From the IMG/VR virus record IMGVR_UViG_3300024268_000010: 64,000 bases of DNA. One strand, 5' to 3'. Shown here piece after piece: positions 17,271 to 58,339 of this stretch. Each line of letters starts with the position of its first letter. The first letter of the stretch is position 1. Both the position numbers and the translations under genes were made by a program. The notes beneath the pieces are model-generated. The model was not told where the DNA came from. It did no database searches and saw only the letters and a list, made by a program, of their open reading frames with translations. Source of the stretch: a virus. Lineage: Duplodnaviria; Heunggongvirae; Uroviricota; Caudoviricetes.

Positions 17271-17438
17271 AGATTTATATTTATTTTTAATTAATTCTTT
17301 TATAATTTGCATAATATCTTTGTCACCATTTATAAATGTAACAAGCCTATCCTCTTGGTGCGTGTTATTATTTACTTCGTTTTTTTCTCTATGTATAAAG
17401 ATTGTTTTCTTTTCCATATAAATAACTCCAATCATTTT
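17271..17438 (-). CDS. small hypothetical protein (about 49-56 aa)
   Basis: RBS ggag; begins within the conserved AATGATTGG leader. Confidence 0.3.
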
Positions 17439-17441
17439 GTT

Positions 17442-17472
17442 TTGTATATAAAAAAATAAGCGGTGATATTGC
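17442..17472 (-). terminator. terminator after dut
   Basis: On the - strand: gcggtggtagcaatatcaccgc followed by ttattttttt. Confidence 0.5.
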
Positions 17473-17490
17473 TACCACCGCTATATTGTT

Positions 17491-17928
17491 TTAGTTTGCT
17501 CCAGTTGAACCAAACCCTCCAGTGCCACGCTCTGTTTCATCAAGTTCTTCAACTTCTTTGAATTGTGCCGTTAAATAAGGTAGAATGATAAGCTGCGCAA
17601 TACGCTCACCGGGTTCAACTATCTGTGTAACGCTAGAATCGTTGTGGAGTGCTACGATATATTCGCCTCTGTAATCGGAGTCGGCAACCCCCACGCAGTT
17701 CGATGGTCTTAAACCCTTTTTTGTAGCAAGACCACTTCTGGCGAAGATTGCACCGAAATAGCCATCTGGAACAGCAATTGCAAGTCCTGTGCCGATTTTT
17801 ACGGTTTCACCTGCTGAAATCGCAATTGGTTTATCAGTACAAGCATATAAATCACAGCCTGCCGCACTTGCAGATCCTCTAGTGGGTATCACTGCATTTT
17901 GATTTAATTTTTTAATTTTAATCTCCAT
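17491..17928 (-). CDS. dut: dUTP diphosphatase
   Basis: dUTPase motifs (AAGCDLYA, RSGLATKKGL); start taken at MEIKIKK, which has the RBS gaaagga; upstream in-frame ATG lies in the AATGATTGA motif. Confidence 0.85.
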   Translation of the reverse strand: MEIKIKKLNQNAVIPTRGSASAAGCDLYACTDKPIAISAGETVKIGTGLAIAVPDGYFGAIFARSGLATKKGLRPSNCVGVADSDYRGEYIVALHNDSSVTQIVEPGERIAQLIILPYLTAQFKEVEELDETERGTGGFGSTGAN

Positions 17929-17941
17929 ATTTATTATCCTT

Positions 17942-18463
17942 TCAATCATTTAGGAGTGTGATAATTTTGCCTTGTTTTATAGTTTCTTTCACATCAATTA
18001 GTCTTTGGTTTTTCGATCCGCGGAACGAGAGATGAACATCTCGTTGTTCATCGATGTATGGACCATCTACAATAACATCACACATACGATAAAGTCGATT
18101 TGTAATCACCAAGTCTAATGATTGATCAAAATCTCGCATAGATAATTTGTTTCCAGTATACAGCCAAATAACTTTCGATGGAAATTTTTCCTTGATGTCT
18201 TCAATTAATTCATACACTGCATAGAAGTTTTGATTTGCTATTGGCTCTCCACCTAAAATACTAACTCTTGTTATATATGGTCTATCAACAAGGCTTAAAA
18301 ATTGTTGTTTAATTTCATAAGTCCATTCTTTTCCACCATCAAAATCCCAAGTATTAGGATTAAAACAGTTGTAACAATGAAATGGACACCCTTGAACGAA
18401 GAGGGAAACTCCAATTCCCTCTCCGTTAGTAAGATCTAAATCTCTGATGCTTGCATAACGCAT
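17942..18463 (-). CDS. nrdG: anaerobic ribonucleotide reductase activating protein (radical SAM)
   Basis: CPFHCYNCFNP CxxxCxxC radical-SAM cluster; adjacent to nrdD. Confidence 0.85.
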   Translation of the reverse strand: MRYASIRDLDLTNGEGIGVSLFVQGCPFHCYNCFNPNTWDFDGGKEWTYEIKQQFLSLVDRPYITRVSILGGEPIANQNFYAVYELIEDIKEKFPSKVIWLYTGNKLSMRDFDQSLDLVITNRLYRMCDVIVDGPYIDEQRDVHLSFRGSKNQRLIDVKETIKQGKIITLLND

Positions 18464-20894: not shown

Positions 20895-20920
20895 CATTTC
20901 TTTATTCCTTTCAATAATAA

Positions 20921-21502
20921 TCATTCTGTCTCGTCCTCCAAACGATTCTTCCACAAACCTTCAAGGTCACATATCCATTTAATAACAGAATAGCTTTTTG
21001 CAAAATTAAAATTTTGAACACTGTAATCCCATTTCTCATCAATAATAAACTTTCTAAACTGCGCAGATTCTGAATAACTTCTTGCTCTAAAAGTTTGCTT
21101 ATTGTCGCCACGTATATTTACTGCTCTCTCCATTCTTATATCATCAGGGCAGGAGATATAAATAATAACTAGGTTTAAATTAGGCAAATTCATAGATAAT
21201 AATGAATCTAAGCCTTTCGGATCAAGTGTATAAAAATCCGCTTTATAAACTTGGTCTCTTGTGGCATAATAATAATAGCCATTGATTTTTGTTTCTGCAA
21301 CTATGTCACCGTTTAGTTTTGCTGCATAGTAGTCTTCTTCTGTAATAAATATATGGTCATTGTCATTTTCGTTACGACGAGGACGAGTCGTGTATGAAAT
21401 TAACTGTGTATATCCTTCACGCTCACAAAGTCTGTTGATAAGACTTGATTTGCCACTGCCGCTTTTTCCAACAAAGATAACAAGGGTGTGTTCAATTTTA
21501 CT
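20921..21502 (-). CDS. guanylate-kinase-like (deoxy)nucleoside monophosphate kinase
   Basis: P-loop GKSGSGKSS followed by YTTRPRRNENDNDHIF, which matches the guanylate kinase signature; start ATGAGT overlaps the upstream stop. Confidence 0.6.
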   Translation of the reverse strand, partial: SKIEHTLVIFVGKSGSGKSSLINRLCEREGYTQLISYTTRPRRNENDNDHIFITEEDYYAAKLNGDIVAETKINGYYYYATRDQVYKADFYTLDPKGLDSLLSMNLPNLNLVIIYISCPDDIRMERAVNIRGDNKQTFRARSYSESAQFRKFIIDEKWDYSVQNFNFAKSYSVIKWICDLEGLWKNRLEDETE

Positions 21503-23029: not shown

Positions 23030-23073
23030 ATTGTTTCCTTTCTGATTATAATATAATCATTGTGTATTGTAAA

Positions 23074-24846
23074 TTAATTATTAAAATCAATTTTATATTT
23101 GCTCCAGACATCTGCCTTATGTCCATCTTTTATAAACAAAGAACTGAATAGCGCAACCAAACAACAAGTGCAGATACTATTGCCTGCTTGTTTGTATCTT
23201 GCACTTGCAGATGTGAATTTCGCAGCCCTATCGTGGTCGTTATCCGCGAACCCCATCAATCTCCAACACTCCTTGGGAGTTAACTTACGAATTCTCCACT
23301 TAATTTTGTCTTGAATCTCACCATTGGCAACTTCTAGTCCACCACAATTCTGCCTCAATGTAGGAGAATAGTTCTCGTAAATTCTTGCGTCTCTGCTACC
23401 AGGGAATTGATCTTCGATAATAACAGTCTTTTCAAGAATCTTTACACCATTGCGTTCTGCTGACGCTCCACAATTACAAGTCAGTGTATTAATGGCGTCT
23501 TGGTCAGAACTAATACGACTATTATAGTCATCATAAACAATTGGTTCTTTAACAATAAAACTTGATTGAGTAGTTGTGCCATTAAGTGCAGGGGCATAAC
23601 CATCAAATACTCTGTTAGCTTTATTGTATCCGTTAGGGAAACTAATGTCCGCACAATCACCTACATTAAATTCGTCAACCACATCACTATTAATGTATCG
23701 TTTAACATTACCGTCCTCGGTAATCATCTTCTTTTGTGTTTCAGTCCAAAGAGATTGAGGTTCTGCAACATAATTGTCTTTGAGCAGTGTAGTAATTGTA
23801 TTTGCAACACCATCTGTACGAGGCTTCATTTCTCTCATATTACCAATCTTCTCATTAACTTCACCTGCTTCATACTGTTTACGAATTGCCTTACCATATT
23901 CAGTTCTTTCGGCACGAAGCACTTGAGGTTCACAGATGTAATTGTCTTTTTGTACAGATGTTAGAGTGTTTGTACATCCGGTAAAGTTAGGTTCCAGTCT
24001 CTGCTCGGTAGGTGCACCAGTGGTTCTATCAGAAGGATTGTCTGGATTTCTTCCACGAGAAGCAACTATGAAAGGCTCTGGTTCAATGACCATCTGTCCT
24101 CTGTCACTCATAGGATTTGCAGGAATTGTATGAGCATAATCTCTAATAGAGTATTGACTAGTTCCTCTATCACCAAACTTTTGAATAATCACCGGCTCTT
24201 GTTCCTCTACAATTGGTAAAATTGCAGTTTTAAAACCATCTGGACGAGTGGTGATTGTAGGACAGATGCCAGTGTGATTAACCTTTTTATTAAATGCATC
24301 AACCATATCTCCCGGCTCACATGCATTTTCCATAATTGTTTCCATCACTTGACGGAAAAATCTTTCTTTAATATCTGTGGTTACAACCTGTTTGTTTTCT
24401 TCAATGACCATTGGTTCACGATTACCACCATCCATTTTAGTTAAAGTAGGGGCAATGCCGTTCACATCATAAACTCTTCCCTGATTGGGATTATCTCTTG
24501 TTTTTGTAGGGCAAACATTGCCAATCTGTTTAACTTCTGGTTCTTCTTCCACAGGAATACATTTCGGATCTTTATAATCTCTTGCAAGTAATGTATCACA
24601 CACATCGGTTGTTTGAATGCGTTTCTTTTCTTGCACAAATGTTGAGTTAAGAATCTTCTCGATACGGTCATCCGGAAGGTAGTATTTCTCATCAACCGAT
24701 TTTTCAAGGATATCTTTTAAACGAGTTGTGAGTGGAATCTGTTCAGGGAAGATGAAACCATGAGTATCTACATCTTTGCGAATTGATATAGCAAATACAC
24801 GTTCACGATTCTGCGGAATGCCATAGTTCTTTGCGTTGCAATTTGT
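23074..24846 (-). CDS. C5 cytosine DNA methyltransferase, C-terminal exon/segment (motifs VIII-X); upstream boundary approximate
   Basis: The reading frame stays open upstream of the ORF-track Met and encodes NCNAKNYGIPQNRERVF (motif VIII); motif X is YKQAGNSI. Confidence 0.6.
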   Translation of the reverse strand, partial: TNCNAKNYGIPQNRERVFAISIRKDVDTHGFIFPEQIPLTTRLKDILEKSVDEKYYLPDDRIEKILNSTFVQEKKRIQTTDVCDTLLARDYKDPKCIPVEEEPEVKQIGNVCPTKTRDNPNQGRVYDVNGIAPTLTKMDGGNREPMVIEENKQVVTTDIKERFFRQVMETIMENACEPGDMVDAFNKKVNHTGICPTITTRPDGFKTAILPIVEEQEPVIIQKFGDRGTSQYSIRDYAHTIPANPMSDRGQMVIEPEPFIVASRGRNPDNPSDRTTGAPTEQRLEPNFTGCTNTLTSVQKDNYICEPQVLRAERTEYGKAIRKQYEAGEVNEKIGNMREMKPRTDGVANTITTLLKDNYVAEPQSLWTETQKKMITEDGNVKRYINSDVVDEFNVGDCADISFPNGYNKANRVFDGYAPALNGTTTQSSFIVKEPIVYDDYNSRISSDQDAINTLTCNCGASAERNGVKILEKTVIIEDQFPGSRDARIYENYSPTLRQNCGGLEVANGEIQDKIKWRIRKLTPKECWRLMGFADNDHDRAAKFTSASARYKQAGNSICTCCLVALFSSLFIKDGHKADVWSKYKIDFNN

Positions 24847-26489: not shown

Positions 26490-26599
26490 TAAATAAATCA
26501 CCTTTCTGTAATCATTCTGTATTGTACAATGTTTAAATATATAGACAAAACTAGCATTTTTGTCTATAATTACAAACATAATCATTTTGTACTGTATAT

Positions 26600-26627
26600 A
26601 TTATAGCATATTATTACCAATTGTCAA
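26600..26627 (-). promoter_or_regulatory. canonical TTGACA-16-TATAAT promoter followed by the ACAGTACAAAATGATT leader
   Basis: On the - strand: TTGACAattggtaataatatgcTATAATatatACAGTACAAAATGATTATG. Confidence 0.55.
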
Positions 26628-34004: not shown

Positions 34005-34014
34005 TTTATTCTCC

Positions 34015-35188: not shown

Positions 35189-37819
35189 TTATCTCCTTTT
35201 ATTAATTAAAATTTTTCTCATAATATCAATCGGGATTACGATGAACGACAATCCGATAACTACTGCCCACTGCATGGGGGTAAGGGCACAAACTTTCATA
35301 AAATCACCAGCAAGAGTACATACAAAGACTACGCCAAGCATGATACCAATTGCGATCTTGCTAAACAGTTTGTTTTTGCTAAGACCTGTAAACAGGTTAA
35401 TATGTTCGGTTCTAATATTAAAACCATTAAGCACTGCCATGAAACAGAGCAAAGCAAAGCGAGCGGTAAGTTTACTTGTTTCATCAGTAAACAATGTATT
35501 AGGAATTGCGAAAATTAAGATGGAGTATGCGATAAGAAAAGCAATGGCACTGCATGCAATTTTACATTTCGCACCACGGATGAAGAGTCCAGAACCTTTT
35601 TTGATAGGTTGTTCGTGCATATATTCTTCTTTGGGAGGCTCGCCACCAAATGACAGTGAGTTAAGAGAGTCCATAATAATGTTGACAAGAAGGATTTGTA
35701 CCGAAGCCAACACTGCCAAACCACCTGTCAGCATTGGGAAAATCATACTGAGTACAAGAAGAGAAATATTGATAGGCAACTGAAATTCAAGGAACATCAT
35801 GATATTGTGCATAAATGTTCTACCAAGCTCCACAGCTTTTACAACGGATGCGAAGTTATCATCGGTAAGAATGATATCGGATGCTTCTTTCGCAACATCA
35901 CTACCACTCTGCATACCAAATCCAACATCTGCTCTCTTCAAGGCGGGGGAGTCATTTACACCGTCACCAGTCATTGCGACCGACATACCAAGTTCTTGAG
36001 CCAAAGTAACCAATCTTAACTTTGTATTAGGGGAACATCTGGAAATTACTCTGAGACGAGGAATGATTTCTTTGACTTCGTCGTCTGACATTTTTTCAAA
36101 CTCATCGTTTGTCAATGCAACATCTCCATCTTTGTAAATTCCACATTCTTTTGCAACCGCAATTGCTGTTTCAATGCAGTCACCGGTGATTTCAATTACC
36201 TGAATACCCGCTTCGTGTGCAACACGAACTGCCTCAGGAACTTCTTTTCTTACAGGGTCAACCACACCAATGATACCCAAGAAAGTCATATCATTAGGAA
36301 GTTCATTTTCAACGAGCTTTCCGTTTGCAATACCAAGTGCAATGCATCTGATTGAGTTTGTCGTAAACTCTTTGATTTTTGCATTAAGTTCGTCTTTGTT
36401 TGCAAAACTTACAATGGAACCGTCACTTGTCATTGCAGAACTGCAAGCAGTGATAATCTTTTCTGGAGCACCTTTGTAATATGTAACTTCTTCCTCGTTG
36501 GTGCAAGCAGAATATTTGTTGACACTATTGAATACCTGTTTATCAAGTATGCCATATTCTGCAACAATATCATGTGCCTCTTTGGATGTTACCAATGATA
36601 GCACTGCTCTATCGATTGAGTTGCCACCAGTGATACAGTCATTTGAATCAAAGACGGCGCTATTGTTAAGAATAATATTGATTTTTAGAAAATCAAGCAA
36701 CATGGTGTTTTGTTCAATTTCGTTTCCGTTATAATCAACGATTGTTTTCGGAGACATAATACCAGTTGTCAGTGTGCCAGTTTTATCAGTGCAAATCAAA
36801 TTAACATATGCAAGTTCGGGAATTTTGCCGGGGTTTTTAGCAAGAATATTAAACTTTTCCATTGTTTTAACGTTCTGCTTTGTAACAAGCTTAACAATCA
36901 ACGGCAGTCCTTCTGGTACTGCGGCAACGACAATCGTAAGCGCGACAGAGAAATTTGAAGCGAACTTCTGAATAAGTTCCAGAACATTTCCTGTAAAATA
37001 CTGAGAAAATCCAACTTCCAAAATGCCCGTGATTGTCAATACAAAAAATGTAATGACTGCTGCAATTGTTCCCCATTTCGAAATGAATTCACTCAGCTTA
37101 TCGAGCGCAATGGTGAGTGCAGTCTTTGGAGCTTCCAATGTCTGCATTTTAACAAGTGTGTCACCGTTTACAGTATTAACGCCAACATCCGTGACTATCA
37201 TTTTACCTTCACCGGACATTACACTTGTTCCTGCAAACAAACAGTTCTGATTCGTGTATGCGTCAGTTGAAGTTGTTTTTGTGTGTATATAGTCTTTGAC
37301 AGGAGTTTTACGGCATTCTTTCGTTTCACCGTTAATGGCTGCGTTGTTTACACTAACCTTTCCTTCGACGATGTAACCATCTGCAAAAATTTCCTGACCC
37401 ATACCGATACAAACAACATCTCCAACTACAAGGTCGTCTTTGTTGATCGTTTGTACTTTTCCATCTCGAATAACATCACAATATCTTACCGATGTCTTGA
37501 GTCGCAATTCTGTGGCTGATTTTTGTACACCAAGACCTGTTCTGATTGCAATACCTGTGACAATTGCCAGAACCAGCATAATCATCAGAGGTTCAGAACA
37601 TTCCATTACACCGAGCGCCGCTAGTGCTAACTGCAGTACCGTGATTGCGATTAGAATTAGTGTAATCTTTTCGCTCAGTGCTTCTTTGGCAAAATCGTAC
37701 CACTTCTTTTGTTTTGGTTCAGGCAATTTGTTGCTACCATGCTTCCATCTGCTTTCAACTACCTGTTTTTGTGTCAATCCGTTCATCTTTTTTGTTTCTC
37801 CTTTTTTTGTTTCATTCAA
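35189..37819 (-). CDS. P-type cation-transporting ATPase (type II, Ca2+-ATPase-like)
   Basis: DKTGTLT phosphorylation site, TGDGVNDSPALKRADVGFGM hinge, about 10 TM segments, 876 aa. Confidence 0.85.
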   Translation of the reverse strand: MNETKKGETKKMNGLTQKQVVESRWKHGSNKLPEPKQKKWYDFAKEALSEKITLILIAITVLQLALAALGVMECSEPLMIMLVLAIVTGIAIRTGLGVQKSATELRLKTSVRYCDVIRDGKVQTINKDDLVVGDVVCIGMGQEIFADGYIVEGKVSVNNAAINGETKECRKTPVKDYIHTKTTSTDAYTNQNCLFAGTSVMSGEGKMIVTDVGVNTVNGDTLVKMQTLEAPKTALTIALDKLSEFISKWGTIAAVITFFVLTITGILEVGFSQYFTGNVLELIQKFASNFSVALTIVVAAVPEGLPLIVKLVTKQNVKTMEKFNILAKNPGKIPELAYVNLICTDKTGTLTTGIMSPKTIVDYNGNEIEQNTMLLDFLKINIILNNSAVFDSNDCITGGNSIDRAVLSLVTSKEAHDIVAEYGILDKQVFNSVNKYSACTNEEEVTYYKGAPEKIITACSSAMTSDGSIVSFANKDELNAKIKEFTTNSIRCIALGIANGKLVENELPNDMTFLGIIGVVDPVRKEVPEAVRVAHEAGIQVIEITGDCIETAIAVAKECGIYKDGDVALTNDEFEKMSDDEVKEIIPRLRVISRCSPNTKLRLVTLAQELGMSVAMTGDGVNDSPALKRADVGFGMQSGSDVAKEASDIILTDDNFASVVKAVELGRTFMHNIMMFLEFQLPINISLLVLSMIFPMLTGGLAVLASVQILLVNIIMDSLNSLSFGGEPPKEEYMHEQPIKKGSGLFIRGAKCKIACSAIAFLIAYSILIFAIPNTLFTDETSKLTARFALLCFMAVLNGFNIRTEHINLFTGLSKNKLFSKIAIGIMLGVVFVCTLAGDFMKVCALTPMQWAVVIGLSFIVIPIDIMRKILINKRR

Positions 37820-37839
37820 TCATTTTGGATTGTAATTCT

Positions 37840-37867
37840 ATTATACTGATATTTTCAAATTTGTCAA
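37840..37867 (-). promoter_or_regulatory. canonical TTGACA-16-TATAAT promoter followed by the TACAATCCAAAATGATTGA leader
   Basis: On the - strand: TTGACAaatttgaaaatatcagTATAATagaatTACAATCCAAAATGATTGAATG; an AATTGTAAAT box lies about 20 nt upstream of the -35. Confidence 0.55.
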
Positions 37868-38930: not shown

Positions 38931-38957
38931 TTTATCACCTCAATCATTTTGTATGGT

Positions 38958-39836
38958 TTAATGAGCGTTTAAATCTGCTTCGTGAAGCAAATCTATCTGT
39001 TTCTTCAAGCACGGAGGTAGATTGTTGTAATACTTGGTGTTCATAAAAGGATCCATATGTGTGCTAATAAGCCAAGCAATATACGGAGTAACATATTGCA
39101 TACCATACGACACCCATGCTCCTACACATTGATGCTGATAATAATGTGCAGTTTCACAAGGATTGCCTTTATTATCTACGAATGCCTTGACATATGGTTT
39201 ACCAACATCATGATAGAATGCCGCAAACCCAATATCACTAGAATACACACCAATCTTATTAACAATATATTTGTTTGCCTCCAAACAATGGTCAAATACA
39301 TTTAATGTATGGTGAGGATTATCATGGGAAATCTGCATACTCGAACAAGTGGAATTTGCATAGTCATATGCATTAAAATCTTTTGGTTTAACAATCTGAA
39401 TTTCGTCAATACCTTCATCATAATAAGGGGCATGGAATCGTTTAAGCATTCGGTCAATAACTTCCTTGCCAACAGTACGTTCTCTCTCAGAGTCCCTTTC
39501 AATACAAACCTCAATAGGTGCCCAAGCAATATGACACTCAATCTTAGCAAACTTTGGACACGCTCCAATAATACCCATTCTATCCTTTCGGGTGACATTG
39601 GTTGCGTCATACAACACATCATGACCGTCATTAAGCGCCACGATAGCTCTATTTTGCATCAAAGAGAACACATCAACTGGATTTCCCTGTACGCTTTCAT
39701 CACCGTAAAGTTCTTTACGAATTTCGTCCGAACTTAAATGGACAGCATTTGAATTGTGTTGAATGTAATTTTTTGCATATGTGGTCTTTCCAGAACCCGG
39801 AATTCCACACAAAATTATCAGTTTTGGTCTATTCAT
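38958..39836 (-). CDS. P-loop polynucleotide-kinase-like domain fused to an HD phosphohydrolase domain
   Basis: Walker A (ILCGIPGSGKTTYAKNY) at the N-terminus; HD motifs at the C-terminus (HDNPHHTLNVFDH, FYHDVGKPY). Confidence 0.55.
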   Translation of the reverse strand: MNRPKLIILCGIPGSGKTTYAKNYIQHNSNAVHLSSDEIRKELYGDESVQGNPVDVFSLMQNRAIVALNDGHDVLYDATNVTRKDRMGIIGACPKFAKIECHIAWAPIEVCIERDSERERTVGKEVIDRMLKRFHAPYYDEGIDEIQIVKPKDFNAYDYANSTCSSMQISHDNPHHTLNVFDHCLEANKYIVNKIGVYSSDIGFAAFYHDVGKPYVKAFVDNKGNPCETAHYYQHQCVGAWVSYGMQYVTPYIAWLISTHMDPFMNTKYYNNLPPCLKKQIDLLHEADLNAH

Positions 39837-45014: not shown

Positions 45015-45923
45015 TTAATAATCATTCTGTATCGTTTCCAATATTCTTTCTAATATTTGATCAACATTATCAAGTTCCCAATATGGAATTTCATATAGAG
45101 GGATATTTAACCTCTTACAACCCTCTCTGCGTTCTTCATCGCGTCTTACGGTTTGTTTGAAATTTTCTTCATTGTCCCATCCATATCCACTATAACTATA
45201 GTGTTGTGGTCCTTGATATTCTATAAGGCACAATAGATTATCACAGTTATCAAAAATTGCAAAATCAAAAAATGGTCTTCTTCCGCTAGATAAAAATATA
45301 TCGTTATGAGAATACTGTGGTATAAAATTAATTTTATGGCTTGTTAACCATTGATTAATTTTCATTTCGCCTTTTGATTTAATGCAACCACAAGAAGTTG
45401 TATTTCCGTTTTTTAAATTGGTTGAATCAACTATTGTTCCTCCGCCACAATCACACTTGCACCGATAACATACGTGGTCAAATCTATTATTTGCAACTCG
45501 TTCTACTACTACCAATTTGCCAAACCGTTGTCCTACTAGCGACTTAAAAGTTGCTTCACTAACTCTTTGTTTTTGATAACATCCACAAGACTGAGTGTTA
45601 TTGTTTGTTAAATTCGATGTTTTAACAACAACTTCGTTACCACAATCACATATACATTTTTGATAAATTGGTGGAATCGATTCAATTACAGTTAATTTGC
45701 CAAACTTTTGACCAGTCAAATCAAGTTTATAAAAATGTTGATCTTTAATGTGTCCACAGCTAGTTGTGTGCCCACTAGTTAGGTAATCGGTTCTGACTTC
45801 TGTCATTCTTCCACAAGAACATTGGCAAACCCATCTAGTATATTTGTCATTTCTTTTTTCTGCTGGTATCAATGCGATAAGTTCGCCAAATTGTATCCCT
45901 GTCAAATTTAATTTTTTAGCCAT
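45015..45923 (-). CDS. Cys-rich triple-repeat zinc-ribbon protein with a C-terminal endonuclease-like (PD-(D/E)xK / Vsr-DUF559-like) domain
   Basis: Three repeats of GxxFGxLxV...CxCxCG...TxSCGC; C-terminal FDFAIF...LCLIEYQGPQHY. Confidence 0.4.
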   Translation of the reverse strand: MAKKLNLTGIQFGELIALIPAEKRNDKYTRWVCQCSCGRMTEVRTDYLTSGHTTSCGHIKDQHFYKLDLTGQKFGKLTVIESIPPIYQKCICDCGNEVVVKTSNLTNNNTQSCGCYQKQRVSEATFKSLVGQRFGKLVVVERVANNRFDHVCYRCKCDCGGGTIVDSTNLKNGNTTSCGCIKSKGEMKINQWLTSHKINFIPQYSHNDIFLSSGRRPFFDFAIFDNCDNLLCLIEYQGPQHYSYSGYGWDNEENFKQTVRRDEERREGCKRLNIPLYEIPYWELDNVDQILERILETIQNDY

Positions 45924-48489: not shown

Positions 48490-48524
48490 ATAAGTTTTTC
48501 CTCCAATCATTCTGCTGTGTTTAT

Positions 48525-48552
48525 ATTATAGCATATATTTTTAAAATGTCAA
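48525..48552 (-). promoter_or_regulatory. canonical TTGACA-16-TATAAT promoter followed by the ACACAGCAGAATGATTGGAGG leader
   Basis: On the - strand: TTGACAttttaaaaatatatgcTATAATataaACACAGCAGAATGATTGGAGG; an AAATGTAAAT box lies upstream. Confidence 0.55.
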
Positions 48553-49359: not shown

Positions 49360-49460
49360 CATAAGATAAACCACATCCTTGCTATAATCATTTTGTTGTG
49401 TTAAATCGTCGGCTATTTAACGCAACTTAATTATATCATAAGATGTGGTTTAGTTCAATC

Positions 49461-49577
49461 ATTTTGCATTGTGAAGTGCTCTGAGTTTGCGCTCCAATTT
49501 CGCAATAATACGGTCGTTATTGCTCGGTCTGGTTTTTAAAAGTGCAATACGTGCTTTAATTGCTGTTTCGTTCATTG
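49461..49577 (-). CDS. tiny ORF (38 aa), speculative
   Basis: MNETAIKARIALLKTRPSNNDRIIAKLERKLRALHNAK; ends inside the conserved AAATGATTG motif. Confidence 0.2.
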
Positions 49578-50924: not shown

Positions 50925-50935
50925 ATATAACTAGC

Positions 50936-51018
50936 CACCTTTATAAGACGGGATTCGAACCCGCGTCTTCAGCTTTTCACGGCTGACGCTCTAACCTCTA
51001 AGCTACACTGGCAATGAT
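50936..51018 (-). pseudogene. tRNA-like element (D-, anticodon- and T-arms; GUGAAAA Phe-like loop) with no pairable acceptor stem
   Basis: GCGGGTTCGAATCCCGT T-arm and CAGCC-GTGAAAA-GCTG arm; the 3' flank TTATAAAGG has no 5' partner. Confidence 0.25.
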
Positions 51019-51551: not shown

Positions 51552-51626
51552 ATATTACAGTCCTCAATTAGCTACTTCAAGAACTGCAACACTTTGTACA
51601 AAACTCGTGAGTGTATACCTCACTTG

Positions 51627-51715
51627 TTGCCAGCGACAGGATTTGAACCTGCTCTAAGCCATAACTGGCATATTCGTTGATTGAGCCATAGGATTTTCAC
51701 CTATGGGAGCAAGCG
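51627..51715 (-). pseudogene. tRNA-like element (T-arm GCAGGTTCAAATCCTGT plus a 7-bp hairpin with a UGAAAAU loop); 5' acceptor unresolved
   Basis: Canonical T-arm and CGCTGGC-A 3' end, but no matching 5' acceptor strand could be found by hand. Confidence 0.2.
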
Positions 51716-51818
51716 TTATTAGGCGGCTAGCATACCTAATAACAGGCTTTACTAATTCTATCCCCACTTACCATTTTCTTGCTTTTTCACATCTTGTATT
51801 TTTAAGAGATTTTCTTTT

Positions 51819-51895
51819 TGGTCGCCCTCAGGAGATTCGAACTCCATCGCTGCACACCTGTGCCGCCGCTCTTACCCTTAAGCTATCGTTAGACT
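51819..51895 (-). pseudogene. tRNA-like element (GGAGTTCGAATCTCC T-arm, CCA end) with degenerate anticodon and acceptor pairing
   Basis: Its D-arm GCTT-AAGGGTAA-GAGC is paralogous to the element at 50936-51018. Confidence 0.25.
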
Positions 51896-52000
51896 AATCT
51901 CTGCAACCCTATCCTAGAGTTGTACGGACTCCTATGGATAGGTCGTACTTGTTGCATACTTAATGTGGCTTTATACTCACTACTCAATCATTTTGTTTTG

Positions 52001-53560
52001 TTAAACAATGTCCTTAACTGCGTCCTCGATAGCTTGATATCTTTCGACATTAAGCACATCGAGCAAACATTCGTAAGGATCAAGTTTGTTAGACATCACC
52101 ATTTTGACAATGTTAACACTAAATCCACTAACAAGGGCAACGCCGAGGCCATTTTCTTTGACAGGAATGGTACCGGTGCGAGAATTTACATTCCAGAACA
52201 CAAGTCTAGGGAGCTTGTATCCATGTGCTTCGTACTTCTTAGCAATCGTCTCAAAGAGTGTTGCCGTAGGAGCTTCACGATATGAATACCAGCCACTAGA
52301 GCGAGTGGAATTTGTGGTGGCACAAGAGTCAAATTCCATATCAGACACGATAAGAATATTAGTAGGAATATCCTCCTGGGCCATATGGTTATTCACTGCC
52401 GTCTGAAGAATCAAATCAAATACTGCCTCAATATTAGTGTTTGCACACTCATTGTGTCTCAGAGCAATACCCAACTTATCATGAAGAGTCTTGGCGTTGC
52501 TAAAGTCAACAAACTGTGGTCTTTCACTAAAGGTGATATACTTATCCTTAAACTCACCAGAAGCTCTTTCAGCAAAATAAATAGCAAGAGCATTGGCAAC
52601 ATCAAGAGCAGTAACACTAGTCTGACCACCAACATTGACAGTCATGCTGCCGGAACCGTCTGCGACAACAAGTGTATTGCCATTGCCATTCACTGTGTCG
52701 GGCAGAGCTTTCCACATACCCTCAAGTGCGGCGTCATGTAATCTAACGGACTGACTCCACATACCACCAGACATGTACTTATGCACAATATCATGAGGAA
52801 ACAAAACAGAAGCATTAATCTTAGCCTCGCCTTTTTCAAGCGCACCAAGATATGCTCTACGACGCTCCTCATCGTTGCAAAGGAATGCATTGTTGTAAAT
52901 AAGATTTGCACGAGAAGGAACGGCCTCATAATTGATTCTACCCCATTCTCTTGCAGACATCTTACATTCAACCACGTCAATATACTTACGGAGTTTAGAG
53001 AGCATCTTACGATAGTTCTTTGATGTCATGCCAAGCCCATTGCGAATGATAGTTGCATATCTCTTTGTTTCCTTGGAAGACGCATTCTCTGAAGGAAGCC
53101 ACTTTCCAATAAGAGAGATAGATTTATTGTTCTCCATGTTAATTCTGTCTTCACCAAGCTGTTCTGCGACACCAGCAATGATGTTCTGCTTCAAATCTGT
53201 ATCAAGAAGACACCACATATCGTCGTATCTACCATATTCAGATGTAAACTTCAGCACTGCCTTGATTACCTCAGGCTTATTCTGAGCAAGGTGCTTAAGC
53301 ACGATTCTAAACAGTCTTCTTTCGCCAAGACCCTCACGGCAGTCTCTAGTGTAAAAGAGCCACTTGATTGCCACAATAGGATCTTCCCAATAAGCGTCCA
53401 TAAACTTATCGATAATCGTCTGTTCCAAAGCGCCTCTGAGAGAAGCAACGGAGAAGTTAAGATCAAGCAGTTTCTTGCCTGTGCTTTTAAATCCAACAGC
53501 ACCATTTTCGGTCAACTGCTTTTCGTTGTTAAGTTCATTTTTCATTGCATTCATAAACAT
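52001..53560 (-). CDS. vWA-domain protein (about 519 aa; DUF2828/TROVE-like architecture)
   Basis: MIDAS LVVADGSGSMT; start taken at MFMNAMK with the RBS ggagga. Confidence 0.5.
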   Translation of the reverse strand: MFMNAMKNELNNEKQLTENGAVGFKSTGKKLLDLNFSVASLRGALEQTIIDKFMDAYWEDPIVAIKWLFYTRDCREGLGERRLFRIVLKHLAQNKPEVIKAVLKFTSEYGRYDDMWCLLDTDLKQNIIAGVAEQLGEDRINMENNKSISLIGKWLPSENASSKETKRYATIIRNGLGMTSKNYRKMLSKLRKYIDVVECKMSAREWGRINYEAVPSRANLIYNNAFLCNDEERRRAYLGALEKGEAKINASVLFPHDIVHKYMSGGMWSQSVRLHDAALEGMWKALPDTVNGNGNTLVVADGSGSMTVNVGGQTSVTALDVANALAIYFAERASGEFKDKYITFSERPQFVDFSNAKTLHDKLGIALRHNECANTNIEAVFDLILQTAVNNHMAQEDIPTNILIVSDMEFDSCATTNSTRSSGWYSYREAPTATLFETIAKKYEAHGYKLPRLVFWNVNSRTGTIPVKENGLGVALVSGFSVNIVKMVMSNKLDPYECLLDVLNVERYQAIEDAVKDIV

Positions 53561-53899
53561 TTGATTGTCCTCCAAAATTGAATTTTTATAAAACAATCCA
53601 AGACACATTTGGTTATATAGATTAAAAGTCTATTCCAGTTAAGATTGCTGTCTGTGTCTTAAGATATCGTTTACATACGAGATACCATAATTGTAATTAA
53701 TTTAAACTAGGTTTAAATTGGCTATTGTCAGTCAATGCCTAAAACACAAGTATATTCCGCTTGGCATAACCGCGAATTAATTTCATCACTTACTATAATG
53801 TTATTAAAATTGCTGTAGGTATCTCTTTGTTAAGCAAGACGCATTTAACTTCAATCCCACTTTGAATTATATAAAATTGCTGTGTGCGTCTTTAAATTA

Positions 53900-54028
53900 T
53901 GGTTGAGAGGGTTGGATTCGAACCAACGAGGCACAATGCCGATGGATTTACAGTCCAGAACATTGCTGCGTAGTCTCTATCAAGACTAACATAAGGCTCC
54001 ATTGCGTTTACCACTTCGCCACCTCTCA
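53900..54028 (-). tRNA. tRNA-Tyr (GTA)-like gene carrying an insertion of about 43 nt between the D-arm and the anticodon loop
   Basis: Perfect acceptor TGAGAGG/CCTCTCA, D-arm GCGAAGTGGTAAACGC, anticodon CUGUAAA with TCCAT, Tyr-type variable arm, T-arm and CCA. The inserted block is flanked by a TGGA direct repeat and holds its own hairpin TAGTCT/AGACTA. Confidence 0.45.
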
Positions 54029-54036
54029 TTATTTGT

Positions 54037-54154
54037 TGCACGGAGTAGGATTCGAACCTACGGCACCAGGCACCCGAACGCATTGTAAATTTGCAGTTTA
54101 GGTTTATGTCTAAACCCAATTATTACTGTGCTCTACCAGCTGAGCTATCCGTGC
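54037..54154 (-). tRNA. tRNA-like gene with an expanded central region of about 45 nt; anticodon unresolved
   Basis: Perfect acceptor GCACGGA/TCCGTGC, D-arm GCTCAGCTGGTAGAGC, T-arm GTAGG-TTCGAAT-CCTAC; the insert contains the hairpin GGTTTA/TAAACC and a TTTACAAT box. Confidence 0.4.
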
Positions 54155-54162
54155 ATATTAGG

Positions 54163-54290
54163 CGGGAAGGGCAAGATTCGAACTTGCGACCAACGGCTTA
54201 GCAGGCATTATCGTTAACATTGCTGTGTACGGCTTTACCAAGTCGCATTGGTTGATGTTTACGTTGCTCTACCAACTGAGCTACCTTCCC
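54163..54290 (-). tRNA. tRNA-like gene with an expanded central region of about 55 nt; anticodon unresolved
   Basis: Perfect acceptor GGGAAGG/CCTTCCC, D-arm GCTCAGTTGGTAGAGC, T-arm GCAAG-TTCGAAT-CTTGC; the insert has an AAGCCGT direct repeat. Confidence 0.4.
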
Positions 54291-54338
54291 AGGTCTCGAT
54301 GAATCAATCATTTTGTTGTGTATCATCATCGTGAATTT

Positions 54339-54367
54339 ATTGTACCATACTTTATTTGATTTGTCAA
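54339..54367 (-). promoter_or_regulatory. promoter P2 (TTGACA-17-TACAAT) immediately upstream of the 54.3-53.9 kb tRNA cluster
   Basis: On the - strand: TTGACAaatcaaataaagtatggTACAAT, then the ACACAACAAAATGATTGATTC leader, which runs straight into the tRNA. Confidence 0.5.
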
Positions 54368-54382: not shown

Positions 54383-54410
54383 GTTTACAAATCGTTTACA
54401 TTTGTTTATA
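54383..54410 (+). repeat. three direct GTTTACA/GTTTATA repeats at 10-11 bp phasing (iteron-like)
   Basis: GTTTACAAatcGTTTACAtttGTTTATA lies between tandem promoters P1 and P2. Confidence 0.45.
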
Positions 54411-54438: not shown

Positions 54439-54467
54439 ATTATAGCACAATCATTTTGTTTTGTCAA
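54439..54467 (-). promoter_or_regulatory. promoter P1 (TTGACA-17-TATAAT) with the AACAAAATGATTG box inside its spacer
   Basis: On the - strand: TTGACAaaacaaaatgattgtgcTATAAT; an AATTGTAAAC box lies about 20 nt upstream. Confidence 0.5.
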
Positions 54468-54503
54468 GTACTATTTGTAAGCGTTAACATTTTGTTTACA
54501 ATT

Positions 54504-54746
54504 TTACTCTTCGTCATTAGGACTCTGATCTACAATGAAGTCTTTAATGCACATATAAATGTCTTTTGAACAACTTACATACAAATCTGCCCAACACATT
54601 CTTGCCGTAGCAGTAAACATCAAAGACTTCGCCGTAACTCTGCTTCCAAGTCCGTCCTCGATAAATACATCTTCCGGCACGGTCGATACATTTTTAACAA
54701 ACTGAGCAATGTCATTCATTGTTTCTAAGTAAATTTTCTGTCTCAT
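54504..54746 (-). CDS. small hypothetical protein (possibly HPr-like fold; weak)
   Basis: Start taken at MRQKIY with the RBS aaaggag; a ...AKSLMFTATA... block is reminiscent of HPr, but no phospho-His is evident. Confidence 0.35.
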   Translation of the reverse strand: MRQKIYLETMNDIAQFVKNVSTVPEDVFIEDGLGSRVTAKSLMFTATARMCWADLYVSCSKDIYMCIKDFIVDQSPNDEE

Positions 54747-54786
54747 GCTGTTCACTCCTTTCTCAATCATTTTTGATTGTATGTTC

Positions 54787-54814
54787 ATTATATCATATAT
54801 TTTCCAATTGTCAA
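54787..54814 (-). promoter_or_regulatory. canonical TTGACA-16-TATAAT promoter followed by the ACAATCAAAAATGATTGAGAAAGGAG leader
   Basis: On the - strand: two AATTGTAAAC boxes, then TTGACAattggaaaatatatgaTATAAT, then the leader. Confidence 0.55.
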
Positions 54815-54829
54815 TATGTTTTTGTTATC

Positions 54830-54850
54830 GTTTACAATTCGTTTACAATT
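54830..54850 (+). repeat. tandem GTTTACAATT boxes (11-bp period) upstream of the promoter
   Basis: gtttacaattcgtttacaatt. Confidence 0.5.
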
Positions 54851-54910
54851 ATACCCCAAAGGGTGTGTTCCAATGGGGTATAATAGGTAATTATCACCGA
54901 TAGGGTGTAA

Positions 54911-57900
54911 TTATAGAGTGGTTTTTCGAAGAGATTTCGTATCGTGCAGCCACTGTTGATAAGTCTTTAACTTTTCTACAAACAAATGGTTATCTTCTTT
55001 TCTTCCAAGAATACATAAACAACTGCCTTTAACAACAAAATCAGAATACTCTTTCAGCTGTCTACTCCAAATTGTACCCTCAACAATTTGATTGTTGATA
55101 CACAAGTCGATATATGCAAATGGATTGTTATTTTTATCTTTTTTTCGCTTAATGTCAACAATAACACATGGCACTATCGCTTTATCTCCATCGGGAATGT
55201 CATCCCATTCAATACCAATACGCGCATATGCTTCTTGTAAAGGGTTATCAGTAATAAACATAGACAAACTTTGAAATTCCCACAAAAACTCATCCTGTGC
55301 ATATTGCTCCTTAAAGTCTTGCATGTGCTTAGTGTACTTTTCTTTTTGTTGTTTTTCAAATAAGTCTTTCTTCTTCTGATTATAGATTGCCAAAACTGCG
55401 GTCTTATCTGTCTTTTTGCCAACTCGATAATCGTTAACATCAATTTCCCACTCGGTAAGTAACTTCAGCTTTGTCGGCAAAGAAGACACAGGAGTATATT
55501 CCTTAAATGTAAAGAGTGACTTAGCATATCTCTGCATCAATTTCATTTTATCACTAACTGGGAATGCCCCCGCTTTAATCAAAGCAATTGTGGCGGTTTT
55601 ATCTTGAACCTTTGCTAAAAAATCATTAAAACTAGAATACGGCTGATTCTCAATAATTTTAGCAATTACAGACGATCCAATACCTTTAACTGCACCAAAC
55701 CCAAACAGGATTTCTTTTTTGTCTGGATGTGCAGTAAAGCTATCACTAGATTCATTAATCTTTGGAGGAAGTACATTAACTTCTAGTCTGTGACAATCAT
55801 TAATAATTGAACTCAACTTTTCAGTTCTATCTGATTTTGCCGTCAATAGTGCAGTCATAAATTCAACAGGATAATAAACCTTCAGCCACGCCGTCAAATA
55901 AGACAACAAACTGTACGCGACAGCGTGCCCACGATTAAAACTGTACTCTGCTTGCTTCGATATTAAAGCCCACACATCTTCAATCTGTTGTTCTGTCCAC
56001 TGTTTACTGTCTAAACCATCCTTAAATTCTGTATATAAGGACGCCATCACATCTTTCTTCTTTTTTCCAATTGCACGTCTTGCGGTATCTTGCTTTTCTT
56101 CTGGAAACCCTGCATAGGCAAACAGATGGAGTGCGTCTTCCTGGTATAAGAGAATTGAGTGTGTTTTCTTGAACAACTCATCTAAGTCTGGATGAATACT
56201 CTTTATCTCCTCTGGATGTAATTTGTTCTTGCAATAATCGGGAAAACTATCTTTTGTGCCTGGTCTATTACTTGCATTAACAGCGATAACATCTTCTATG
56301 TTATCAACATGTGCATTAATACTCATTGTCCTTGCTTCTTGTGATTCAAACTGGAAAATACCAATTGTGTTACCAGAACTATAAACCTCATCGAATACTT
56401 TTTTATCATCAAGATTTAAGTGGTTAATATCAACATCTTTCCAAGTCAAACCAGTCAACCTCAAAGTGTCATCAACAATGTCCAAATTCTCCAATCCCAG
56501 ATAGTCCATCTTACAATACCCAAGAGAATCCATCGCTGCATGCATTTCCAATTGTGCCATTACATTTTTGTCGTTGTCAAGACACAGAGGCATATGTTCT
56601 ATGACCGGGTGTGGTGTAATTAAAGTAGCACTTGCGTGTCTACCTCTCGACTTAGGAAGCCCCTCAAGTTCCATAACATACTTAAACCACAAAGGAAACT
56701 GCTTATATATCTTGTCGAGCTTTTCATTTTTACCAACCAACTCTTTAAGCAACACTTCTTTTTCTTCTTCTTCACCAAGGTCACTTAAAGTTTTAACGGT
56801 AGGTATCATCTTGGCAACTTCATCCCTCATAGAATAAGAAATCTGCCCAAAATAAGGACTACTCTCTTTCTCGTTAAGAACCTTGCCAATATCTTTAATG
56901 GCCACTTTGGTACTCAAAGTATTAAATGTAGCAATTGGTGCGACATTCTCCTTACCAAACAATTCCTCAGTTAGCTCAATTATTTCTTTTCTTCTTCGTT
57001 TACTAATATCCCAGTCGAAGTCTGCAAGGCTACCAATACGACCCATGTTTGCAAAACGAGAAAAGTCCAAATCCCAACGCACACTATCAATCTGAGTAAC
57101 GCCAAGCAAAAATAAACATAAGCAATTTGCTCCTGATCCTCTAGAGTAACCCCTTGGCAACTCTCTTTTATCTGCTTCTTGAGCAATCATATACAACATG
57201 ATAAAATAGTCCGTATAATCTAAAGCATTAATGACCGGTAACTCCCGCTCAAGTCTATCTCGTCTAATTTTCTGATCCTTTGTAGACATCCAACCAAACT
57301 TTTCATCAAAAGATTTAAAAACCAAGTAATGAAGATATTCTTCGTGAGATGAGTATTCTGCTGGTACATCTACAACTGGTGTAATACTACCATGCCCAAC
57401 ACCATAATCAATGTTATCATCAACCATGTTGGCAATTTTTACAGTTTCGTCAATGCCTTTCTGAATAACCTCTTGAGAATTCCATCCACTCAAATATTGA
57501 TATACATCTTTTTCGGTTTGCAAATGACATCCTGCATAAATTTCTCCTGCTTCACGACCCTCTCCAATTTCAACAAAAATAGAATGAGTATCAAGTTGGT
57601 CTGCATTTAACATATGTGCGTCAGTAGTAATAACATATGGAAGTCCATTATCTTTTGCAAAATTATAAATTGCAGTATTGCATGACAACTGTTCCTCGGT
57701 AGGATGTGATTGAATCTCAAGTGATACATAATCAAATGTATCTTTAAGTAAATCAACATACTCTTTCGTTTCTTGAACTTTTCCATTCTCAAGATATCTA
57801 CTCACACGCCCTGCTTGACAAGCAGTAAGACAAATAATACCCTCTCCAAGATTATTGTTATTAATCCAAGAGATAGATACCCTTGGCTTTCCATAGAATC

Positions 57901-58240
57901 CAGTTGTTGCAGCCTCACTTACAATCTTGAATAAATTTTTAAGACCTTGTTGTGTTTTAACAATTAACAATAGGTGATATCTTGGCTGTTTATACTCTTT
58001 AGTGTCTTGCTTTTCTAGGTAGTTGTCTACCTCATAAATCTCACAAGCCACAATGGGTTTAACTCCATGTTTGTTACACAACTCTACTTGATTGACAAAC
58101 CCATGCATAGTCCCATGGTCTGAAACTGCAATAGCCGGCTGATTGTTGTCAGCAGCATATTTAACAATTTGCTCTACTGTTAAAATAGAGTCTAACAATG
58201 ACCCAAGTGCTGAGTGCACATGCAAATTAACAAAACTCAC
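54911..58240 (-). CDS. dnaE: DNA polymerase III alpha subunit (DnaE-type, N-terminal PHP domain)
   Basis: 1109 aa from a GTG start (SFVNLHVHSALGSLLDS PHP motif); polymerase core and OB region; RBS aggagg. Confidence 0.85.
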   Translation of the reverse strand: MSFVNLHVHSALGSLLDSILTVEQIVKYAADNNQPAIAVSDHGTMHGFVNQVELCNKHGVKPIVACEIYEVDNYLEKQDTKEYKQPRYHLLLIVKTQQGLKNLFKIVSEAATTGFYGKPRVSISWINNNNLGEGIICLTACQAGRVSRYLENGKVQETKEYVDLLKDTFDYVSLEIQSHPTEEQLSCNTAIYNFAKDNGLPYVITTDAHMLNADQLDTHSIFVEIGEGREAGEIYAGCHLQTEKDVYQYLSGWNSQEVIQKGIDETVKIANMVDDNIDYGVGHGSITPVVDVPAEYSSHEEYLHYLVFKSFDEKFGWMSTKDQKIRRDRLERELPVINALDYTDYFIMLYMIAQEADKRELPRGYSRGSGANCLCLFLLGVTQIDSVRWDLDFSRFANMGRIGSLADFDWDISKRRRKEIIELTEELFGKENVAPIATFNTLSTKVAIKDIGKVLNEKESSPYFGQISYSMRDEVAKMIPTVKTLSDLGEEEEKEVLLKELVGKNEKLDKIYKQFPLWFKYVMELEGLPKSRGRHASATLITPHPVIEHMPLCLDNDKNVMAQLEMHAAMDSLGYCKMDYLGLENLDIVDDTLRLTGLTWKDVDINHLNLDDKKVFDEVYSSGNTIGIFQFESQEARTMSINAHVDNIEDVIAVNASNRPGTKDSFPDYCKNKLHPEEIKSIHPDLDELFKKTHSILLYQEDALHLFAYAGFPEEKQDTARRAIGKKKKDVMASLYTEFKDGLDSKQWTEQQIEDVWALISKQAEYSFNRGHAVAYSLLSYLTAWLKVYYPVEFMTALLTAKSDRTEKLSSIINDCHRLEVNVLPPKINESSDSFTAHPDKKEILFGFGAVKGIGSSVIAKIIENQPYSSFNDFLAKVQDKTATIALIKAGAFPVSDKMKLMQRYAKSLFTFKEYTPVSSLPTKLKLLTEWEIDVNDYRVGKKTDKTAVLAIYNQKKKDLFEKQQKEKYTKHMQDFKEQYAQDEFLWEFQSLSMFITDNPLQEAYARIGIEWDDIPDGDKAIVPCVIVDIKRKKDKNNNPFAYIDLCINNQIVEGTIWSRQLKEYSDFVVKGSCLCILGRKEDNHLFVEKLKTYQQWLHDTKSLRKTTL

Positions 58241-58275
58241 TACTTTTATCCTCCTAATCATTGTGTTGCGTAATT

Positions 58276-58305
58276 ATGATAATACCAAAGTACCTAATTT
58301 GTCAA
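58276..58305 (-). promoter_or_regulatory. promoter (TTGACA-18-TATCAT) followed by the ACACAATGATTAGGAGG leader, for dnaE
   Basis: An AATTGTAAAT box lies upstream of the -35. Confidence 0.4.
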
Positions 58306-58339
58306 GATACTTTGGTATTAATTCACATTTTATTTACAA

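Follow-up and report, generated by a model that had tools for sequence, protein, structure and literature searches.

A repeated asymmetric box in an SPbeta-like phage as the probable operator of an SroF/MrpR-family master repressor

What is the role of a short sequence that recurs along tens of kilobases of a phage genome, in front of gene after gene and in the same orientation as those genes? This question is raised by the Caudoviricetes record IMGVR_UViG_3300024268_000010, from which we analysed a stretch of 64,000 nucleotides (the window). The window is part of a 174,779-bp metagenomic contig (ERZ27248370 k141_4000473), on which it was placed by an exact match of its RecJ-like protein, and the 8 kb of flank past its right end (L120) were also read. 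A first-pass annotation of the window had described a 12-mer repeated on the − strand and had regarded it as a conserved, transcribed leader. We propose that the motif is probably the operator box of the phage's own master repressor, a protein of the SroF/MrpR/YopR family that would occlude early sigma-A promoters. The proposal is drawn from sequence comparison, from the placement of the boxes, and from the repressor systems of related phages.

The motif is a genuine conserved element, as had been claimed. The 12-mer CAATCATTTTGT has 15 matches with at most one mismatch in the window against 1.97 expected, and none of 100 shuffled sequences reached 15; the degenerate pattern YAATCATTYTGT has 11 matches against 0.26 expected. 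A weight matrix of 20 columns, built from 96 unique sites of the family and applied with a cut-off of at least 14 bits, returned 20 sites in the window compared with ~1.2 in shuffles. All 16 coordinates listed by the first-pass annotation carry the motif (17429, 17943, 23055, 26509, 26579, 37818, 38941, 45019, 48505, 49386, 49457, 51985, 54305, 54447, 54764 and 58255), and the matrix adds four sites that were absent from that list, at 20917, 61033 and, on the + strand, 4310 and 13237. Read in gene orientation, the full element is asymmetric and ~19 nt long, wACAnwACAAAATGATT(G/A), with a second ACA that lies 2 nt 5′ of the core and is conserved at 53-55 of 63 sites. Between −70 and +70 around the motif there is no further conserved column, apart from a purine-rich bias directly 3′ that reflects Shine-Dalgarno (SD) sequences.

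Orientation is equally regular. Eighteen of the 20 window sites are on the − strand, from 17.4 to 61.1 kb, and two are on the + strand (4310 and 13237); all are co-oriented with the local genes, and the window contains no antisense copy. No Rfam family covers the motif, and a full-text literature search for the 12-mer matched unrelated primers and sequences only. Sought in related phages, the motif was recovered in the same contexts, both in four further phages fetched through repressor homologues (54-73% identical to the repressor of the window phage) and in a pattern scan of IMG/VR, where many contigs carry three to five co-oriented copies.

The relationship between box and promoter was examined across 96 unique copies with at most one mismatch, a promoter being counted as nearby if it scored at least 10 of 12 as a sigma-A promoter. 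In 15 copies the 3′ TTG is common with the −35 hexamer, at an offset of 9 every time. Three copies fill the promoter spacer, always at offset −8, so that their upstream ACA is the ACA of TTGACA. A further 22 start 6-16 nt after the −10, mostly at 7, 9 or 11 nt (the '+1' class), two lie further downstream of a promoter, and one overlaps a promoter in another way. Conversely, across six loci, 12 of 13 perfect sigma-A promoters and 14 of 24 that match at 11 of 12 positions are boxed at these registers, against a background of 2.8% of the sequence that lies as near to a box. These registers bear directly on the idea of a transcribed leader. Eighteen of the 96 copies lie in promoter parts that the adjacent promoter leaves untranscribed, and a primary function as a leader is not supported. 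Even in the '+1' class, the upstream ACA is kept in 20 of 22 copies, though its predicted place is at the transcription start or upstream of it; with the start taken as the canonical 7 nt after the −10, this ACA would be partly absent from the RNA.

Within the window, all five perfect promoters of the − strand (26.6, 37.85, 48.5, 54.45 and 54.8 kb) are boxed; all sites in this paragraph are on that strand. Four of them are the TTGACA-16-TATAAT promoters that the first-pass annotation had correctly recognised, and in each the box follows the −10: by 9 nt at 26578..26597 (promoter 26627..26600), by 11 nt at 37816..37835 upstream of a P-type ATPase gene (promoter 37867..37840), by 9 nt at 48503..48522, abutting an SD (promoter 48552..48525), and by 11 nt at 54763..54782, abutting the SD of an 80-aa open reading frame (ORF; promoter 54814..54787). 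The spacing of 4-6 nt originally given for these cases is true of the upstream ACA only, whereas the 12-mer itself starts 9-11 nt after the −10. The fifth, a perfect TTGACA-17-TATAAT at 54467..54439, has its spacer filled by an exact-core box (54447..54466) whose upstream ACA is the ACA of the −35. This spacer placement had also been noted, and 23.05 kb provides a second case, with a box at 23053..23072 (offset +8 from the −35) within the spacer of TTTACA-17-TATAAT (23073..23045).

Three of the five 11-of-12 promoters listed on this strand are likewise boxed (23.05, 54.35 and 58.3 kb), and two further 11-of-12 matches, in the late-gene part of the window, are unboxed. At 54.35 kb, TTGACA-17-TACAAT (54367..54339) is followed by an exact core (54304..54323; 26.9 bits), which lies 22 nt 3′ of its −10; a tRNA-like gene comes 13 nt further on. 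At 58.3 kb, a box at 58254..58273 starts 9 nt after the −10 of TTGACA-18-TATCAT (58305..58276) and is directly next to the SD of the gene for the DnaE-type DNA polymerase. The −35 register is represented at 49455..49474, where the 3′ TTG of the box is the TTG of TTGAAC-17-TATAAT (offset 9), and a last copy (49384..49403) lies 33 nt downstream of the promoter at 49458..49430, upstream of an amidase/endolysin-like gene.

A candidate for the protein that would read the box is encoded ~6 kb past the right end of the window, at L120 1769-2710, after a YopP-like integrase gene. This protein of 313 aa matches SPbeta YopR by BLASTP with E = 1e-13, and a profile search of the PDB with it matches only YopR/MrpR and SroF of phage phi3T. 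The best Foldseek matches to its AlphaFold2 model (predicted local distance difference test score, pLDDT, 79) are 8A0A (MrpR), 8BJ6 (YopR) and 9RD5, 'Phi3T SroF bound to DNA' (9RD5_H); these folds rank above Cre and integron integrase. The candidate has 595 metagenomic homologues, many of them on contigs of 140-175 kb, and a precomputed table shows that the homologues carry both MrpR domains. By protein alignment, it was located at only two loci in IMG/VR, and GTDB species genomes gave no match.

The promoter of the repressor gene carries the box in an arrangement of its own. Directly upstream of the gene, five phages with repressors of 54-100% identity have two inverted boxes that together make up TTGaAA-17-TATAAT: the TTG of the first hexamer comes from the left box, the 17-nt spacer is occupied by the right box, and TATAAT comes next. 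Antisense copies of the box were found only in this promoter pair. Taken together, the registers, the inverted pair and the retained ACA point to an asymmetric protein that reads double-stranded DNA and would occlude RNA polymerase. The motif is, as first described, a strand-specific element tied to stereotyped promoters and acting at the level of nucleic acid. Among the three roles that the first-pass annotation had offered for it, a binding site for a phage regulator is favoured, and RNA processing and translational enhancement or coupling are not, as main function.

The gene content of the phage places it with a known group. The − strand block encodes a DnaE-type polymerase, a Dda-like helicase, a RecJ-like nuclease, a primase, an NAD-dependent ligase, NrdD/NrdG, a thioredoxin-like protein, a dUTPase, enzymes of RNA-repair type and tRNAs, and ends with a large serine integrase. 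The 8 kb past the right end add a YorF-domain protein, a Sak4-like ATPase, the YopP-like tyrosine integrase and the MrpR-domain protein. The order of these genes (YorF, Sak4, DnaB, primase, RecJ and DnaE, then NrdDG, thioredoxin, dUTPase and serine integrase) is SPbeta-like and matches yorF-yorG...yorK-yorL...nrd-yosR-yosS...sprA of SPbeta itself. Judged by gene order and content, the window phage is an SPbeta-like temperate phage. At the DNA level, a megablast of 12 kb of the window against 50,697 phage records found no close relative, a match to a tRNA-Gln being the only one.

In SPbeta, a comparable element is already known. The SPbeta repeated element (SPBRE) was predicted in silico in 1999, and in 2023 chromatin affinity purification sequencing (ChAP-seq), electrophoretic mobility shift assays and isothermal titration calorimetry established it as the binding site of MrpR (YopR/SroF), a monomer with a tyrosine-recombinase fold that is the master repressor of SPbeta (PMC10516654). 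We recovered 12 SPBRE copies from the SPbeta sequence, (tagACAaat)ACAAAwAATATGTATA, all co-oriented with the downstream gene; each lies in the spacer of TAGACA/TTGACA-17-TATAAT, immediately 3′ of a −10, or directly at an SD. The two systems thus share phage type, gene order, a homologous repressor, a non-palindromic A-rich ACA..ACAAA..ATG box, co-orientation and placement; in SPBRE, the asymmetry of the box follows from its recognition by a monomeric repressor. They differ in the box itself, since only the ACA..ACAAA..ATG skeleton is common to the SPbeta consensus and wACAnwACAAAATGATTR, and the motif of the window has no match in SPbeta. They differ also in density (~12 copies in 134 kb of SPbeta, 18 copies in 49 kb of the window) and in context: SPbeta copies mostly show −35/−10-like hexamers, whereas more than half of the copies in the window family are promoter-less.

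The phage phi3T offers a second comparison. In a 2025 bioRxiv preprint, the crystal structure of its SroF shows a monomer encircling a 26-bp non-palindromic box (Phi3TRE), and several repressor specificities as well as multiple genomic sites are described (10.1101/2025.11.27.690993). In 50 kb of the early region of phi3T we found ~15 co-oriented copies, some directly before a −35 and some promoter-less and abutting SDs at gene junctions. Phi3TRE and the window element are therefore alike in being long asymmetric A-tract boxes with many co-oriented early-region copies, a promoter-less SD-abutting class, and a repressor of matching (here predicted) fold. The phi3T core, in contrast, is AGAATAAAAATAAAAT, and SroF reads 24 of 26 bp, compared with ~19 nt conserved in the window phage. 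phi3T also carries an arbitrium module. In the Mammaliicoccus phage phi6255, the repressor homologue is 24% identical, and promoter spacers hold a separate repeat, aaaGATAAAATATAAT. A de novo repeat search also covered Geobacillus virus E3, with DNA of 29% GC. By function and descent, the element would be of the SPBRE/Phi3TRE kind, with a new type of box specificity. The lambda CI operators at OR and OL provide a more distant likeness, being master repressor sites over early lytic promoters with an autoregulated repressor promoter. However, CI binds as cooperative dimers to palindromic 17-bp operators at two loci, and the window phage has an asymmetric, monomer-type box in dozens of copies over tens of kilobases.

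We infer from these parallels that the 313-aa protein binds the box and that binding represses. As shown for phi3T SroF and SPbeta MrpR, one repressor monomer would clamp around one asymmetric, A-tract-rich box. The bound repressor would block sigma-A RNA polymerase at the −35, the spacer or the start site of the strong early promoters. These drive replication, nucleotide-metabolism and RNA-repair genes, and the prophage would thus be kept silent. The inverted pair, as the repressor's own promoter, lends indirect support to binding and would make repression autoregulatory. Induction may proceed through a small antirepressor under LexA control, encoded next to the repressor gene. An SOS-box-like sequence, CGAACATTAGTTCG, lies at L120 3031-3044 (~5 kb past the right end), where it fills the spacer of TTGAAT-17-TATAAT, the promoter of an 84-aa ORF that adjoins the repressor gene. 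In L120 and in two related phages (L127, 11842; L128, 11056), an ORF of 84-85 aa lies downstream of the repressor gene, with SOS-box-like sequences in or near its promoter. The 84-aa ORF is a candidate for a LexA-controlled, Sar-like antirepressor, and the SOS-box-like sequence in its promoter fits the published LexA-Sar-SroF scheme.

Several observations weigh against an operator role. The link between this protein and this box rests on homology and position. Its Pfam matches, to MrpR_N_CB (21.6 bits) and MrpR_C_cat (26.5 bits), are in the right order, and both are just under the cut-offs of 27; the identity to YopR is ~30% and confined to ~138 N-terminal residues. The box consensus fits neither SPBRE nor Phi3TRE, and ~19 nt are conserved against the 26 bp of the phi3T box; a differing box fits a repressor this far removed from YopR. 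A further point concerns the 53 of 96 copies that have no sigma-A promoter of at least 10/12 nearby. In 33 of these, the box separates a stop codon from an SD within an operon, typically as [TAA]CAnnACAAAATGATTR[GGAGG], and weak sigma-A promoters are not enriched at the '+1' register of the junction copies (mean best score 6.94, compared with 6.65 in controls; p = 0.07). Strict co-orientation with transcription and adjacency to SDs are not predicted by an operator model.

The window has junction copies of this kind and some others; unless stated otherwise, they are on the − strand. An exact core at 17428..17447 (25.9 bits), with no sigma-A promoter, follows an intrinsic terminator at a distance of 8 nt and borders on the SD of a small ORF that lies upstream of the serine integrase. 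Placement at the nrdG/dut junction and at 45.0 kb had been described before and is confirmed: the box at 17942..17961 (17.0 bits; no promoter) extends over the final codons of nrdG and borders on the dut SD, and that at 45018..45037 (18.7 bits) overlaps the 3′ end of an HNH endonuclease ORF. Another copy of the junction type lies upstream of the thioredoxin-like gene (20917..20936; 15.0 bits). The box at 26508..26527 (18.7 bits) is the second of a tandem pair, with a hairpin before it and, directly after it, the SD of the gene for the N-part of a DNA methyltransferase. An exact core at 38940..38959 (23.2 bits; no promoter) fills the 27-nt gap between a kinase-like and a nucleotidyltransferase gene, flanked immediately by the stop codon (5′) and the SD (3′). 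The stop codon of the DUF2828/DUF7788 gene is where the exact core at 51984..52003 (27.1 bits; no promoter) starts; a tRNA-like non-coding RNA and a tRNA cluster come after it. Two copies lie inside co-oriented genes with no obvious promoter or SD, one in the RecJ-like coding sequence (61033..61052; 22.4 bits) and one, an exact core on the + strand, in a 1375-aa ORF (4310..4329; 17.8 bits). The other + strand copy (13237..13256; 19.5 bits) has the orientation of the late genes and precedes the SD of the holin gene.

Other phages show similar junctions. A copy stands directly after an intrinsic terminator downstream of the repressor gene in five phages, as at 17428, with no room for a promoter. 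At the junction before the Sak4-like gene, several phages keep the box while the flanks diverge, and the window phage has a variant with three mismatches. Since the phi3T boxes include the same promoter-less, SD-abutting class, it is a family property and not peculiar to the window phage. Most simply, the junction copies would be extra repressor sites that act as roadblocks to read-through in the lysogen.

A related reading gives the box two functions, as DNA operator and in a second role at the promoter-less stop/SD copies (a third or more of the total), either as a polar transcriptional roadblock or insulator or as a signal in RNA processing or translation. We regard this as possible but rather unlikely. 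If it is true, the strict co-orientation of the box, and also of SPBRE and Phi3TRE, would be a functional requirement new to this repressor family. A roadblock or insulator would partition the long early operons in the lysogen, and an RNA signal would control single cistrons during lytic growth.

The junction copies also speak for an element that acts purely as RNA, either as the cleavage site of an endoribonuclease of host or phage or as the target of a translational repressor or enhancer; each cistron would thereby have a separate 5′ end close to its SD, or separate control of translation. Co-orientation of all copies with transcription, the 33 copies exactly between stop codon and SD, an SD beginning −1 to +3 nt from the box end in 31 of 55 scorable copies, and the copies that precede tRNA-like RNAs are all consistent with it. 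The last of these had been pointed out in the first-pass annotation, and it is correct that 54304 precedes tRNA-like genes and 51984 a non-coding tRNA-like stretch. T4 RegB (GGAG) and RegA sites are similar in being short repeats at the translation-initiation regions of many early genes. Those sites, however, act in RNA only and have no promoter register, whereas a fifth of the copies in the window family occupy untranscribed promoter DNA at exact registers. The ACA retained in 20 of 22 '+1' copies at or before the predicted start, and reverse copies that occur only as the second arm of the repressor gene promoter, likewise argue against recognition in RNA, as does the lack of an Rfam hit. A PHROGs scan of 48 window ORFs recognised no RegB/RegA-like or motif-specific RNA-binding protein, several of these ORFs being unannotated and most of the 175-kb genome lying outside the scan. 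We therefore consider an RNA-level element unlikely.

Upstream ORFs (uORFs) opened by the ATG of the motif had been presented as a feature of the element, and this is not supported. The motif ATG is in frame 0, 1 or 2 with the gene start in 22, 14 and 19 cases, respectively. The lengths of the encoded peptides vary, and no SD precedes the motif ATG. The uORF was accordingly rejected as a selected feature, and this absence of frame constraint is a further point against an RNA-level role. The uORFs look incidental, a by-product of the ATG within the box.

Could the box instead be a promoter, read by a phage RNA polymerase (YonO-like), sigma factor or appropriator, with transcripts that begin inside it or immediately 3′ of it? 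The same genes would in that case have two promoters in tandem, an early one (sigma-A) and a middle one (the box). The box resembles the promoters of single-subunit RNA polymerases in being compact, non-palindromic, co-oriented and ~19 nt long; copies precede non-coding RNA genes, and those right after intrinsic terminators (17428, and downstream of the repressor gene in five phages) leave no room for a sigma-A promoter. Yet nesting in sigma-A spacers and fusion to the −35 at fixed registers fit occlusion better than an independent promoter, and an mRNA started after the box would open with the SD. The box is rare in the late structural operon, which is what YonO transcribes, and the homologous SPBRE is experimentally a repressor site. 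We also tried the motif-internal CAAAAT as a −10, and the upstream TACAAT/wACAnw hexamer, and rejected both: neither has a −35-like partner, the −35 scores being no better than at random positions. An analogy with AR9-type non-virion RNA polymerase or T7-type promoters was dropped after the register analysis. A phage-specific promoter thus appears very unlikely. A sigma-dependent promoter-proximal pause of the lambdoid Q type, which calls for a −10-like TAnnnT in the first transcribed stretch of a sigma-A promoter, was rejected as well: in the hexamer wACAnw, T is first in 44% and last in 41% of copies with a near-invariant C, and more than half of the copies are promoter-less.

It is highly improbable that the box is a recombination linker, whether as a boundary repeat promoting cassette shuffling, comparable to the promoter early stem-loop (PeSL) cassettes of T4-type phages, or as a substrate of the YopP-like tyrosine recombinase; boxes do flank many small ORFs and regions rich in homing endonucleases, and the junction of the Sak4-like gene keeps its box between diverging flanks, but the box is too short for efficient homologous recombination, an inverted architecture like that of core sites occurs at the repressor promoter only, and the tight tie to perfect promoters is not predicted.

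If the motif is the operator of the 313-aa repressor, the system of SroF/MrpR and its repeated box, studied in the Bacillus phages SPbeta and phi3T, would extend to a large clade of uncultured SPbeta-like phages of ~140-175 kb. About a hundred aligned natural sites of a new specificity would be useful in understanding how a monomeric integrase fold reads DNA, and a map of operators and promoters is ready for the annotation of such phages. A question is also raised for the whole family, namely the reason for co-orientation and for promoter-less copies 5′ of ribosome-binding sites.

Several features near the boxes deserve description in their own right. The 26.5-kb boxes enclose a segment (26528-26577, − strand) with a 25-nt hairpin, TAGACAAAAATGCTAGTTTTGTCTA, followed by TATATTT; the hairpin may be an attenuator, and the opposite strand of the segment reads as a TAGACA-17-TATAAT promoter. 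The DNA methyltransferase downstream is apparently split (23074-26489, − strand). Its ORF at 25761-26489 corresponds to positions 207-354 of PHROG 116 and that at 23074-24636 to positions 368-489, and an HNH endonuclease ORF (25069-25686) lies between the two parts. The split may be due to an intron or other mobile insertion.

The boxed perfect promoter at 37.85 kb is followed by a full-length P-type cation ATPase gene (865 aa; 35189-37786, − strand). After it comes a tandem array of three ORFs (33423-35182, − strand), each 190-193 aa long and almost the same at the N-terminus, of which the two that were scanned (33423-34004 and 34604-35182) match PHROG 5698.

Several promoters or boxes on the − strand are closely preceded by direct repeats of the form AATTGTAAA(C/T) (54820-54845, 54490-54505, 54385-54405 and 53670-53680). 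The repeats are conserved at the same place in related phages (L125 ~1975, L126 ~7790, L127 ~7235 and L128 ~7185), and are probably the site of a second regulator.

The boxes at 54304 and 51984 adjoin a set of RNA genes. tRNA-like genes with long insertions in the anticodon region occur on the − strand at 53900-54290, 50874-50982 and 51560-51984, and were missed by ARAGORN; Rfam calls a tRNA at 54037-54154 only, with weak, sub-threshold hits to the Y RNA-like YrlA at 54107-54211 and 50874-50982. Two more ends resembling a T-arm and acceptor lie downstream of the 51984 box. A second repeat, ACAGCAAT(G/T)TT, is present in at least five copies at 53640-54290 (− strand), in the tRNA-like insertions and in the non-coding stretch that follows. 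The tRNA-like genes flank the DUF2828/DUF7788 gene (PHROG 850, 'RNA-binding protein'; 52001-53608), and the same region encodes an RNA ligase, nucleotidyltransferases and a kinase-like protein whose best PHROG hit is unnamed and whose second is polynucleotide kinase. The DUF2828/DUF7788 gene and the tRNA-like region may form an RNA-repair module similar to Ro and Y RNA.

Finally, the − strand encodes a set of NAD-related proteins: one with a PARP catalytic domain (40656-41873), one with a Macro domain (41886-42311), a nicotinamide phosphoribosyltransferase-like protein (29641-30834) and the NAD-dependent ligase. Adjoining the PARP and Macro genes is an adenylosuccinate-synthetase-like ORF (42327-43499, − strand) that PHROGs labels as PurZ type. 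A Z-genome (PurZ) may be doubted: Pfam sees a generic adenylosuccinate synthetase only, and its neighbours are PARP and Macro rather than DatZ or MazZ.

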